NCBI RefSeq assembly: GCF_006345805.1
Contig: NW_021831701.1
Coordinates: 1-34,231 of the forward strand
Direction of reading: 5' to 3'
Length of the DNA: 34,231 nt
From: Octopus sinensis
Lineage: Eukaryota
Of the stretch, positions 3,166-21,639 are shown piece by piece (within the stretch, counting starts at the first letter, position 1; each line of letters starts with the position of its first letter). Made by a program: the position numbers and the translations under genes. The notes below the pieces were generated by a model. That model worked only from the letters and a program-made list of their open reading frames with translations, had not been told where the DNA came from and made no database searches.

Positions 3166-3420
3166 TTATATATATATAAACGGTTGGAGAGGTGGCTAAT
3201 TCGTGTCTGCAGCATTAAACACACGCGAGTTTGCATAACACAATATTTAACACTGTTAGAAAATTAAAAAGGAAAAGAATGAAAAAAAGAAGCAAATATT
3301 AAAGATAGCAGAAACAAACAAAAAATAGAATCTTAAAAGTAAAACCTGCGAAAATATGACGTAATGAATATTTAAATTTGTTTGCCAGTTTATCTAATCA
3401 AATGTTGTAAGATAGTACTT

Positions 3421-5922
3421 AGCCATTCTTATACACTTGTCTACATTTCTTTTTGCCTATTTGTCTTCTAGCATTTTCTTATACACTTGTCTACATTTCT
3501 TTTGCCTATTTGTCTTCTAGCATTTTCTTATACACTTGTCTACATTTCTTTTTGCCTATTTGTCTTCTAGCATTTTCTTATACACTTGTCTACATTTCTT
3601 TTTGCCTATTTGTCTTCTAGCATTTTCTTATACACTTGTCTACATTTCTTTTTGCCTATTTGTCTTCTAGCATTTTCTTATACACTTGTCTACATTTCTT
3701 TTTGCCTATTTGTCTTCTAGCATTTTCTTATACACTTGTCTACATTTCTTTTTGCCTATTTCTTCTAGCATTTTCTTATACACTTGTCTACATTCTTTTT
3801 GCCTATTTGTCTTCTAGCATTTTCTTATACACTTGTCTACATTTCTTTTTGCCTATTTGTCTTCTAGCATTTTCTTATACACTTGTCTACATTTTTTTTG
3901 CCTATTGTCTCTTTCTAGCATTTTCTTATACACTTGTCTACATTTCTTTTTGCCTATTTGTCTTCTAGCATTTTCTTATACACTGTCTACATTTCTTTTT
4001 GCCTATTGTCTTCTAGCATTTTCTTATACACTTGTCTACATTTCTTTTTGCCTATTTGTCTTCTAGCATTTTCTTATACACTTGTCTACATTTCTTTTTG
4101 CCTATTGTCTTCTAGCATTTTCTTATACACTTGTCTACATTTCTTTTTGCCTATTTGTCTTCTAGCATTTTCTTATACATTGTCTACATTTCTTTTTGCC
4201 TATTTGTCTTCTAGCATTTTCTTATACACTTGTCTACATTTCTTTTTGCCTATTTGTCTTCTAGCATTTTCTTATACACTTGTCTACATTTCTTTTTGCC
4301 TATTTGTCTTCTAGCATTTTCTTATACACTTGTCTACATTTCTTTTTGCCTATTTGTCTTCTAGCATTTTCTTATACACTTGTCTACATTTCTTTTTGCC
4401 TATTTGTCTTCTAGCATTTTCTTATACACTTGTCTACATTTCTTTTTGCCTATTTGTCTTCTAGCATTTTCTTATACACTTGTCTACATTTCTTTTTGCC
4501 TATTGTCTTCTAGCATTTTCTTATACACTTGTCTACATTTCTTTTTGCCTATTTGTCTTCTAGCATTTTCTTATACACTTGTCTACATTTCTTTTTGCCT
4601 ATTTGTCTTCTAGCATTTTCTTATACACTTGTCTACATTTCTTTTTGCCTATTTGTCTTCTAGCATTTTCTTATACACTTGTCTACTTTCTTTTTGCCTA
4701 TTTGTCTTCTAGCATTTTATTATACACTTGTCTACATTTCTTTTTGCCTATTTGTCTTCTAGCATTTTCTTATACACTTGTCTACATTTCTTTTGCCTAT
4801 TTGTCTTCTAGCATTTTCTTATACACTTGTCTACATTTCTTTTGCCTATTTGTCTTCTAGCATTTTCTTATACACTTGTCTACATTTCTTTTTGCCTATT
4901 TGTCTTCTAGCATTTTCTTATACACTTGTCTACATTTCTTTTTGCCTATTTGTCTTCTAGCATTTTCTTATACACTTGTCTACATTTCTTTTTGCCTATT
5001 TGTCTTCTAGCATTTTCTTATACACTTGTCTACATTTCTTTTTGCCTATTTGTCTTCTAGCTTTTCTTATACACTTGTCTACATTTCTTTTTCCTATTTG
5101 TCTTCTAGCATTTTCTTATACACTTGTCTACATTTCTTTTTGCCTATTTGTCTTCTAGCATTTTCTTATACACTTGTCTACATTTCTTTTTGCCTATTTG
5201 TTCTTTAGCATTTTCTTATACACTTGTCTACATTTCTTTTGCCTATTTGTCTTCTAGCATTTCTTATACACGTCTACATTTCTTTTTGCCTATTGTCTTC
5301 TAGCATTTTCTTATACACTTGTCTACATTTCTTTTGCCTATTTGTCTTCTAGCATTTTCTTATACACTTGTCTACATTTCTTTTTGCCTATTGTCTTCTA
5401 GCATTTTCTTATACACTTGTCTACATTCTTTTTGCCTATTTGTTTCTAGCATTTTCTTATACACTTGTCTACTTTCTTTTTGCCTATTTGTCTTCTAGCA
5501 TTTTCTTATACACTTGTCTACATTTCTTTTTGCCTATTTGTCTTCTAGCATTTCTTATACACTTGTCTACATTCTTTTTGCCTATTTGTCTTCTAGCATT
5601 TTCTTATACACTTGTCTACATTTCTTTTTGCCTATTTGTCTTCTAGCATTTTCTTATACACTTGTCTACATTTCTTTTTGCCTATTGTCTTCTAGCATTT
5701 CTTATACACTTGTCTACATTTCTTTTTGCCTATTTGTCTTCTAGCATTTTCTTATACACTTGTCTACATTTCTTTTGGCCTATTTGTCTTCTAGCATTTC
5801 TTATACACTTGTCTACATTTCTTTTGCCTATTTGTCTTCTAGCATTTTCTTATACACTTGTCTACATTTCTTTTTGCCTATTTGTCTCTAGCATTTTTTA
5901 TACACTTGTCTACATTTCTTTT
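3421..5922. repeat. 50-bp tandem satellite/minisatellite, about 50 copies
   Basis: Unit CATTTTCTTATACACTTGTCTACATTTCTTTTTGCCTATTTGTCTTCTAG repeated head-to-tail with no spacers; variants are mostly 1-2 nt deletions. Confidence 0.98.
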
Positions 5923-6267
5923 TGTTTTGTTTTTTGCTATTTGTTTTCTCAGCATTTTCTTTTATATTATTTGTTTGTTCATTTGCTTGTTTTCGTTTGC
6001 TTATGCGTGTGTTTGTAAGAAACTGCAAACAAATTTATAAATAACCAAAAATCTAATCATTCTTTTGATAAAAATTCAACTGGGGAATTGTTTGCCAAAA
6101 TTTGGAAAAATATTCTAAAATTGTACGCGGAACATATGGGAATAAGCAGACGTTAAAGCATAGTTATGATGACTGACAAATTTGTTTCATATTAATAATA
6201 TTAGATTCGAGAAGGAGTGTAGGGGATTGGCCGAAGAGGCTAGCACCACAAAGATAACAAGATAACT

Positions 6268-18180: not shown

Positions 18181-19225
18181 AATCCGATTAGAAACTGTGC
18201 TGTATTGTTTATTGATTGCTGTTTGGCCGAGGTATTGAGGTCGATAAGACTGTCAACGGGCAACGGATTTTAAAAATTATGATGACGACGACGACGACGA
18301 TGATTATGATGATGTTGATGATGATGAAATGACGAGGATGGTGGTGGTAGTGGCTGTGGTGGGGTTAGTGTTTTTACTGGAAATGACCATGTGGTGATTG
18401 ATGCTGATGATAAAATTACTAAGATTAACTGCTTTTATTTGTGTGTGTTTTTTTTTCTGTTTTGTCCCCCACTTTTGCAACAATGGTGAGGAGTATGCAC
18501 TTCAGAAAATGTATTATTAATTGTCATCTTATTTAGGCTTAGTATTAAAAATTAATTATCTCCATTGCTTAAACGATAAAAAAAAATATGTATTTTCAAA
18601 AAAATGAGAAGCATACACCACACATAATAAAAAAAAATATCTAAAGGAAATATCTCTCTTACCGGAAGGAAGGAAAAAAGTTGGGAGTGGGAAATAATAT
18701 TATAACACCGTTACTGACAGGAAGTACAAAGCGTAATCTGATTCATGGGATATAAATATCCGGAGATATTCGTCGCCATCATTAAATTAAGATTATTCAA
18801 ACGGTATCTAAGATCAAATCAGCCACAGAGTAAGATTATTCAATTGCATGTTAATGATAGGCGTGAACTTGGCCAGCAGAAAGGGAAAATGTTCTAAGAA
18901 TGTAGTTGTTAGGGTGAAAGGAAGTTTTCTTTGCTTTGGAAGAAAAGAATAATAACAACAACAATAACAAACCTCTTTCTAGAATAGACACAAGGACTAT
19001 ATACTCTTTAATCTCTTTTACTTGTTTCAGTCATTTTGACTGTGGCCGTGCTGGAGCACCGCCTTTAGTCGAGCAAATCGACCCCGGGACTTATTCTTTG
19101 CAAGCCTAGTACTTATTCTATCGGTTTCTTTTGCCGAACGTTTTTGCTAAGTTACGGTGACGTAAACACACCAGCATCGGTTGTCAAGTGATGTTGGGGG
19201 GACAAATACAGACACACAATCATAT

Positions 19226-19264
<39 letters not shown>

Positions 19265-19472
19265 GTGAAATAGAAAGATGAATAATCTTGTAGTGGATTA
19301 ATCAAAAGTTTAACCGATACCTTAGTAGCAAAAATCACAGCAGTGAACAGCACGGTTGGAGGTACAACCATCTGGCGTTGCACCGTGCGTTGGTGCGGAT
19401 AATTGAAATTAAAACATTATTGGTGAATTGAAGAAATGGAGCTGAACGCAGATTGACACAGAAATCGTTTTA

Positions 19473-19560
19473 TTCATCTACACGTGTTTCGAAAGGCCAC
19501 AAATTACCAAAATCGATTGAATAATGGGACCATATTGTGTCTTTCTCTTCAGGAAGAAAA
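19473..19560 (-). ncRNA. Hammerhead ribozyme motif (left arm of palindrome)
   Basis: Minus strand TTCTTC-CTGAAGA-GAAAG...CTTTC-GAA-ACACGTGT-A-GATGAATAAA. Confidence 0.7.
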
Positions 19561-19717
19561 AAGGAATCCGTTGGAAAAAAACAAAACAGAACAGAGGCAG
19601 AGCAAAAAACAAATCGAACTGTGCTCCTAAGAGCCATGGCGAAACTCTTAGGAGCACAGTTCGATTTGTTTTTTGCTCTGCCCCTGTTCTGTTTTTGTTT
19701 TTCCAACGGATTTCCTT

Positions 19718-19806
19718 TTTTCTTCCTGAAGAGAAAGACACAATATGGTCCATTATTCAATCGGATTTTGGTAATTTGTGCCTTTCGAAACACGTGTAGA
19801 ATGAAA
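19718..19806 (+). ncRNA. Hammerhead ribozyme motif with extended stem II (right arm of palindrome)
   Basis: TTTCTTC-CTGAAGA(19726-19732)-GAAAGACACAA...TTGTGCCTTTC-GAAA(19787-19790)-CACGTG-TA-GAATGAAA; palindromic helix III, predicted cleavage after the GUA ending at 19798, AATAAA at 19805-19810. Confidence 0.8.
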
Positions 19807-20230
19807 TAAAACGATTTCTGTTCAATCTGCGTTCAGCTCCATTCTTCAATTCACCAATTTATATATATATATATATATATATATATGCATATATACGACG
19901 GGCTTCTTTCAGTTTCCGTCTACCGAATCCACTCACAAGGCTTTGGTCGGCCCGAGGCTATAGTAGAAGACACTTGCCCAAGGTGCCACACAGTGGGACT
20001 GAACCCGGAACCATGTGGTTGGTAAACAAGCTACTTACCACACAGCCACTCCTACGCCTATAATATATGTATATTTTTTTCTTTGACGGATTTGGGAGCT
20101 GGTCGATTACATAGTCCCTAGTGCTCGACTGGCATTTATTTTATTATCGAACCTGAAAATCCACCGCAAAGGAAATTGAACCCCTAAGCGTTTTTTTCTT
20201 TCTTTTTTTTTTTCTGGCGTGCCAACGATT

Positions 20231-20622
20231 CTTATTTCTTTATTGCCCACAAGGGGGTAAACATAGAAGGGACAAACAAGGACAGACAAAGGGATTAAGT
20301 CGATTACAGTGCGTAACTGGTACTTAATTTATCGACCCCGAAAGGATAAAATGCAAAGTCGACCTCGGCGGAATTTGAACCCAGAACGTAACGGCAGACG
20401 AAATACCTATTTCTTTACTGCCCAAAAGGCGCTAAACACAGAGGGCACAAACAAGGACAGACAGACGGATTAAGCCGTATTTCGTCTGCCGTTACGTTCT
20501 GAGTTCAAATTCCGCCGGGGTCAATAAATTAAGTACCAGTTACGCACTGGAGTCGATGTAATCGTCGACTTAATCCGTTTGTCCTCTCTGTGTTTAGCCC
20601 ATTATGGGTAGTAAAGAAATAG
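20231..20622. mobile_element. Tandem plus inverted multimer of headless SINE family B modules
   Basis: 20231-20407 minus, 20408-20474 minus (3' part), 20477-20622 plus; all match 10533-10718. Confidence 0.85.
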
Positions 20623-20686: not shown

Positions 20687-21080
20687 CAGTAGCAGTAGTA
20701 GTAGTAGTAGTTGTGGTAGTAGTAGTAGGAGGAGGAGTCTCACAGTATGGTGCGTCGTGATACCCCCCTTTACTCCCCTGAGATCTTATCATATTCTTGG
20801 CTTTCTCGTTTTCATGCTGTCTTCTCTGTATCTTCGTAGAACATCTGTTTCAACTCTCAGGTGAAACTGCATTCAAATATTTATCTAAACCTAGGTTTTT
20901 TGCTTACGACTTCCAGCGCTGTCATTACCTCCCACTGTCACCACTATCACCACTATCATCATCATCATCATCGTCGTCGTCGTCGTCATTAAAATCATCA
21001 CCATCATCATCATCATCTTCATCGTCATTCCCGTCATTAACATCATTCATTATTATTATTAGCTTACTATACTATTACAG

Positions 21081-21132
<52 letters not shown>

Positions 21133-21191
21133 TACTACTACTACTACTACCACAACCATCACCACTACTACTGCTGCTGCTGCTACTACTA

Positions 21192-21224
<33 letters not shown>

Positions 21225-21228
21225 TTGA

Positions 21229-21447
21229 ATAGTCTTGATTATTAATTCTGCCATGAAGGGAAACCATTGCGCCGGCGGATTTCCAAGATGTAGCCTCCCC
21301 CCATCCCCAAATCATTACAGATCCTCTTCCATGTTTAACTGTTGGAAGAAGGCAGTCTGGGTCAAATGCTTCTTTTGGCTGTCTCCACAGGTATACTCGG
21401 CCGGTGATCTGAAATAGGGCAAAGGATGACTCATCTGAGAAAATAAC
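21229..21447 (-). pseudogene. Tc1-family transposase fragment (first catalytic Asp region)
   Basis: VIFSDESSF...GRVYLWRQPKEAFDPDCLLPTVKHGRGSVMIWG...LHGRINNQDY matches the Tc1 signature (V.FSDES.F...VWR...E.....C..PTVKHGGGSVMVWG); embedded between microsatellites. Confidence 0.92.
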
Positions 21448-21639
21448 ATACAACACCTGTATATACATACACATATATACATACATGCATACAAAGATAT
21501 ATACGTGCGTATATATATATGCGTGTATATATGTATGTATATGTATATATTTCTATATACATACATGTATATATCTACACACACACATATACATATGTAT
21601 ACACGCACCGGTACAGCCATGAGTCGTCTAGCAACCGTC

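Follow-up and report, generated by a model that had tools for sequence, protein, structure and literature searches.

We found that the palindrome at 19263–19859 of the window (the whole 34,231-nucleotide stretch of Octopus sinensis DNA analysed here) probably arose when an autonomous Penelope-like element (PLE) of Hydra type inserted a short, ORF-less copy of itself into a (TA)n repeat, likely by priming from both nicked target strands on one sense RNA. The long arm (19263–19646, minus strand) represents the leader of the element (pLTR and tail), from a putative RNA start (+1, at 19646) to start site 1 (19263). It includes a one-sided tail of 156 bp (19263–19418, minus strand), which spans the element from start site 2 to start site 1 and, in full elements, runs on into the ATG 49 nt further. 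The short arm (19645–19859, plus strand) is the leader from +15 to start site 2. The arms meet at a central junction (19634–19647), where element sequence (+1 to +14) forms an 11-bp loop and the microhomology is CT(C). Because the arm spacer, CCATGGCGAAA, is element sequence, the left arm extends to 19646. Alignment of 19419–19633 with 19645–19858 gave 208 identities, 2 mismatches, and 9 one-base gaps, confirming the ~440-bp palindrome with ~215-bp inverted arms reported in a preliminary description of this DNA; the tail is on the left arm only, as also stated there. The long arm is 97–98% identical to 39 other genomic copies (best 40 of 1,959 candidates scored). The same palindrome centre was found at 63 genomic places and a reversed-pattern control at none, indicating that the palindrome is not due to chance.

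Each arm carries a type I hammerhead motif. The right motif (19716–19808, plus strand) has the core CUGANGA...GAAA (CUGAAGA at 19726–19732), an NUH site, and helices I–III, with a stem II of ~54 nt and a palindromic helix III at 19790–19797; GAAA-CACGTG-UA lies at 19787–19798, and the cut is predicted after 19798. In the left motif (19478–19552, minus strand; CUGAAGA at 19552–19546 and GUA at 19481–19479), helix I is damaged by one-base gaps in the assembly. A type I pattern scan accepted only the right motif; the left copy has the core and failed because of the one-base losses in helix I. To judge from another copy, against which the left arm shows 9 gaps, these losses are probably assembly errors. 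The two divergent hammerhead motifs claimed earlier are real and lie on opposite strands. The covariance model check proposed with that claim located the motif in the right copy at a score below gathering: Rfam Hammerhead_1 matched 19720–19804 weakly (14.9 bits against a gathering threshold of 34, E 0.82) because of the 50-nt insert in stem II. Over the whole window, the best 150 of the 172 Rfam matches listed were mostly miRNA models on repeats and included no hammerhead, and a short-stem hammerhead pattern gave only 2 chance-level matches elsewhere in the window.

The insertion is flanked by (TA)n repeats (19236–19262 on the left and 19860–19895 on the right), and these by the left (19001–19235) and right (19896–20062) halves of one SINE, which appears similar to octopus SINEs. 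At 19 other places among the sampled loci (duplicates removed by eye), a short TA run connects the two halves, so the proposed insertion into the TA core of a SINE was correct. At L055, another palindromic insertion, independent of the one in the window, interrupts the TA core of a member of this SINE family. Elsewhere in the window, there are a tandem array at 3426–5924 (50-bp unit, 50.6 copies, 96% matches, strongly strand-skewed), pieces of another repeat at about 20270–20600 that appear by eye to be inverted to each other, and an open stretch at 21067–21552 (minus strand) containing PTVKHGRGSVMIWG, which we take to resemble a Tc1-type transposase fragment.

The window arm corresponds to the 3′ terminus of an element of 3,632 bp that encodes a reverse transcriptase (RT) and a GIY-YIG nuclease, the unit having been read from a tandem locus, and most long-arm matches continue upstream into a common body. 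The genome-wide arm search called for in the preliminary description therefore found other copies that are palindromic, TA-flanked, and linked to an RT/GIY-YIG ORF, and the suspected Penelope link was borne out. Natural open frames of 842 aa and 895 aa (the latter from ATG to stop) encode RT and GIY-YIG. The best fold matches of a predicted model of the parent protein were telomerase RTs, and GIY-YIG was present in 26–50% of the members of its protein-atlas neighbours. Fifty-six protein relatives were obtained at E 5e-51 or better, the named ones being only from Argonauta; in 13 relatives, YRDD, DK(T/S), the GIY-YIG core (AVY..YIG), CxxC, and CxH align, as does the R/H/E/N region. Pfam searches with frame pieces, the 842-aa frame, and 4 relatives, and a PDB sequence search, gave no matches. 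A protein search of the genome for other Hydra families returned only the parent family among the best 150 scored.

Exact patterns matched 2,986 hammerheads and 2,601 tail ends genome-wide, and the median identity to the reference copy was 98.2% (145 sampled arms). The family is thus a young, autonomous, protein-coding PLE with about 2,600 copies in the genome. Insertions form a size continuum, the shortest being about 30 bp and the longest exceeding one unit, and palindrome centres are of many different kinds. The window palindrome belongs to the short end of this size range of a 3,632-bp RT/GIY-YIG element and is not a separate ORF-less element, contrary to the view that it represents an ORF-less derivative forming its own family. 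Contigs of four runs guessed to be RNA differ from the reference copy by single bases that affect the frame, suggesting assembly errors in the latter. The protein of L034:946-3471 (minus strand) has two long, low-confidence Ser/Asn/Pro-rich inserts (residues 433–517 and 579–716), which are absent from most relatives; P0001, P0002, and P0004 have shorter ones at the same places. An older subfamily (L070, L082, L192, L227, L228, and L260), 83–92% identical, has the same two end sites and likewise lacks the CxCX5C linker motif. L186, L187, and L188 are arrays of 2–3 full units in tandem, and at these loci a whole two-armed insertion is also duplicated head to tail.

The family has the characters of EN+ PLEs: its one ORF encodes a telomerase-like RT and a GIY-YIG nuclease, partial tandem copies form pLTRs, 5′-truncated copies are inverted and have a tail on one side only (about 150 nt, against a published 30–40), and the pLTR contains a hammerhead motif. 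We also compared it with the marks of the Hydra clade as defined in PMC8557442 (available in part). As in that clade, the RT is followed by a C-terminal GIY-YIG without CCHH (one Cys between AVY and YIG), DKT is present, N-terminal GxKF/Y is absent, and the C terminus has CNLC (CxxC) and CPH (CxH); a type I hammerhead near the 3′ end, 5′-truncated inverted copies, and insertion into (TA)n (93/95) are further shared features. The family also departs from that clade in several respects, according to the same partial source. The element is 3.6 kb long, compared with under 3 kb in the Hydra clade. Its linker has lost CxCX5C down to one Cys (21/21 full linker rows, including the older subfamily) and has long Ser/Asn-rich inserts, whereas the motif is present in 42 of the 48 relatives that reach the nuclease; at the RWK position of the Hydra clade, the family has IRWL, and 33 of the 56 relatives have RW[KR]. 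Stem II of the hammerhead is ~54 nt, in contrast to the short stems in File S2, and the hammerhead differs from that of Hydra-1_Obim, the sole cephalopod family in the Hydra table. Since the CxCX5C mark is lacking, we file the family as a PLE of Hydra type and not as a tested member of the clade.

To characterize the insertions, we took the first 100 tail ends in position order on one contig (C1), representing 96 loci, and classed 95, leaving out L233, which has no tail match. Ninety-three of the 95 tail ends run into TA, bearing out the proposed targeting of TA repeats. Two arms were present in 71/95, and several of the other 24 show a few bases of a second arm. The second arm ends at unit positions 3470–3484 (site 2) in 68/71 and never (0/71) at the first site (3632), about 150 nt downstream; the tail is therefore the distance between two fixed ends. 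An exact pattern found 579 site-2/TA ends genome-wide. The two end sites are rich in A/T, and each overlaps the flanking TA repeat. Of the hammerhead pairs in the first 100 matches, 29 were divergent and none convergent, and 16 of the divergent pairs lay within 300 nt (~480 if scaled). The arms are symmetric within 25 nt in 25/71 insertions (shuffle mean, 6.1), and in 14/71 they do not overlap, the site-1 arm starting at or after site 2. Both arms of one insertion share one haplotype: 12 of 501 diagnostic cells differed between arms (43 insertions with 3 or more diagnostic columns), and 5 of 271 in asymmetric insertions alone, compared to 27.9% of 16,972 cells across insertions. Later gene conversion or assembly polishing could account for part of this sharing.

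The 5′ breakpoints pile up at one place. Twenty-five of 166 fell in 17 nt around unit position 3246 (+1), with 26 in the next 84 nt and 2 in the 90 nt upstream. Genome-wide, a base other than C precedes the A of +1 at 128 places; all 30 places checked were true junctions, and the base was G in 74 of 100 among the matches listed (hand count). Controls 10 nt upstream and 9 nt downstream gave 16 places (1 G; 6/10 checked were real junctions) and 18 places (5 G; 8/10 real), respectively, and the excess of G at +1 was significant (Fisher p 9e-9). In an independent run, one contig (X5, place 5552) also ends at +1 behind a G. The context CAGTTT at +1 is, in our view, initiator-like. Cap copying is marked by an extra G in L1/SVA insertions (PMC3287187, in part), and the Penelope promoter sits in the pLTR (PMC2377424, in part). 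From these DNA junctions, we infer that +1 is the capped RNA start. The long arm in the window ends exactly at +1; the extra G at 19647 is ambiguous, and the junction is equally well explained without it. On the other hand, 1,195 arms extend beyond +1, and the tandem copies examined all begin elsewhere; longer templates, multimeric or circular and supplied by tandem arrays or circles, must therefore also be in use.

The following course of events would explain these insertions. The GIY-YIG nuclease would cut both strands of (TA)n, and the two target ends would prime on the same sense RNA, one at site 1 (+387) and the other at site 2 (+226 to +239). Both cDNAs would copy through the uncleaved hammerhead, stop at the RNA 5′ end or earlier, and be joined head to head by microhomology. 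In the window, one cDNA would have reached +1, the capped 5′ end, and 2–3 nt of microhomology near +15 would have linked it to the other. The hairpin would then be a by-product, whose read-through RNA would bury the ribozyme instead of activating it. A purified Anolis PLE, Poseidon_Ac, provides a precedent (PMC11167929, in part): it cuts and extends both strands, two internal RT start sites bound the tail, the targets are AT-rich, and the template is RNA with an uncleaved hammerhead. The start sites of the octopus family are about 150 nt apart (30–40 in Poseidon_Ac) and precede the ATG, whereas those of Poseidon_Ac are within the ORF; in a further difference, the octopus sites pair with the TA target, and each arm uses one of them. 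Contrary to the reading of one site per strand, start sites did not differ between strands in vitro for the Anolis PLE, according to the same partial source. We consider the chances even that ~two thousand two-armed insertions record strictly asymmetric twin priming (a single RNA with two fixed internal start sites separated by 150 nt, each serving one target strand, and run-off at the capped leader) and that TA targeting in this family does not depend on the linker zinc finger that has been credited with it. Twin priming in L1 also involves two primers on one RNA and results in a 5′ inversion. The octopus family and L1 have in common the extra G where a copy reaches the RNA start (PMC3287187, in part). 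In contrast to L1, both start sites of the octopus family are fixed internal sequences and not a poly(A) tail, and the arms usually overlap to form palindromes.

An alternative that retains the same parent element derives the second arm from fold-back: the first cDNA would snap back, or self-prime on antisense RNA, and the nuclease would resolve the hairpin at site 2, leaving the tail. The window junction has perfect snap-back geometry, with an 11-nt loop closed by CT(C)/(G)AG; symmetric junctions occur at 4 times the shuffle expectation, also far from +1, and the shared haplotypes are accounted for. Self-priming on antisense RNA has been proposed for head-to-head palindromes (PMC3846280, in part), as have nuclease-made tails (PMC8557442, in part). 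The symmetric arms in 25/71 insertions fit fold-back as well as a shared template end. However, many site-2 arms reach further upstream than the site-1 arm. The 14/71 insertions without overlap are not producible by fold-back of the site-1 arm; longer or non-overlapping site-2 arms need a second cDNA, and these insertions share a haplotype too. Single-armed elements ending at site 2 (L176, L177, L178, and L185) also argue against fold-back. We therefore regard it as rather unlikely for the family, although it may apply to symmetric cases such as the window locus.

Along the lines of the preliminary description, the palindrome could instead be a non-autonomous, ribozyme-bearing mini-element copied as a unit by the protein of the parent. 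Short double-hammerhead palindromes are indeed common (the 16 pairs within 300 nt noted above per first 100 matches), some junction sequences recur, and leader-only RNAs of truncated copies could be used in trans. Nevertheless, the 50 loci listed have about 20 different junctions (hand count), that of the window not being one of them, one recurring junction occurs in both polarities on different haplotypes, sizes are continuous up to full length, and the short unit was not seen in tandem arrays like those of retrozymes; copying as a unit is thus improbable. The inversion might instead be an assembly fold-back, as the window is an entire 34-kb unplaced contig with many one-base errors. This is hardly credible, since the flanks are two different SINE halves, the arms end at different fixed sites, and the 63 similar centres are mostly on chromosome-scale contigs, one of them (L055) in the same SINE. 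Equally remote is retention of the hairpin by the host as functional dsRNA, a source of siRNA or a substrate for editing. The hairpin is predicted to be very stable, Penelope inverted repeats yield siRNAs in Drosophila (PMC3681739, in part), a lizard Penelope is heavily edited, and hyper-editing in octopus is very high (PMC5625713, in part). Against this, the insertion is young and interrupts a SINE in DNA full of repeats, the 47 long frames of the window include nothing like a host gene, and nothing singles out this locus from hundreds of equivalent ones.

The core and helix III of the hammerhead are kept in 89/102 copies (74 loci), with variation mainly at N7, and no core cell was substituted (0/321) in 27 older arms, compared to 7.0% in the rest of the leader, a weak contrast because these copies are related. 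One older copy carries a gap in CUGA. The copies are very alike, and 18 older ones show no compensatory helix change. In structure predictions, the active fold lies 3.4 kcal/mol above the minimum, monomer folding is no better than that of shuffles (z −0.96), and cofolding yields an 8-bp intermolecular ACACGUGU helix. Dimer-type PLE hammerheads have been described (PMC4209133, in part), and the palindromic helix III of the octopus family fits this type. Since the two hammerheads are on opposite strands, one transcript holds one in sense, and the usual dimer does not form in cis. Breakpoints clustered near the cut among the 95 loci, a possible footprint of cleavage, but this was rejected as a genome-wide hotspot: the genome-wide junction search showed no pile-up of breakpoints at the predicted cut site (20 matches, 12 of them true junctions; about 5, 10, and 14 at three controls and 128 at +1). 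AATAAA was likewise rejected as a poly(A) signal; insertions continue 50–210 nt past it without poly(A), so the templates are not cut there. Animal non-LTR retrozymes are also ORF-less, carry a type I hammerhead, and derive from PLE pLTRs (bioRxiv 10.64898/2026.07.22.740005, in part). They consist of head-to-tail tandem units, each with a hammerhead, whereas the window holds a head-to-head pair with hammerheads on opposite strands and hence does not have retrozyme structure.

The read-through hairpin of the window palindrome has a predicted energy of −370 kcal/mol, and the sense hammerhead would be buried in it. By analogy with other systems, hairpin RNA is plausible as a substrate for editing or siRNA production. 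In contigs of the four presumed RNA runs, which covered all 30 bins, A>G changes were not clearly in excess.

Inverted, tailed, hammerhead-bearing, and TA-targeting PLEs are already known, and the origin of their tandem and inverted structures and tails has been named an open question (PMC8557442, in part). A full-text literature search, covering few subscription papers and not Repbase/Dfam, returned no report of this octopus family, the 150-nt tail, one-site-per-arm use, or a PLE cap G. The window locus itself is ordinary; the value lies in the mechanistic record of the family, whose hundreds of near-perfect hairpins may also serve as substrates for editing. The loss of CxCX5C while TA targeting is kept provides a test of the linker hypothesis. 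As a young, intact family with thousands of insertions, it yields exact predictions (the RNA start and two start sites, one per strand) and likely records how PLEs integrate.
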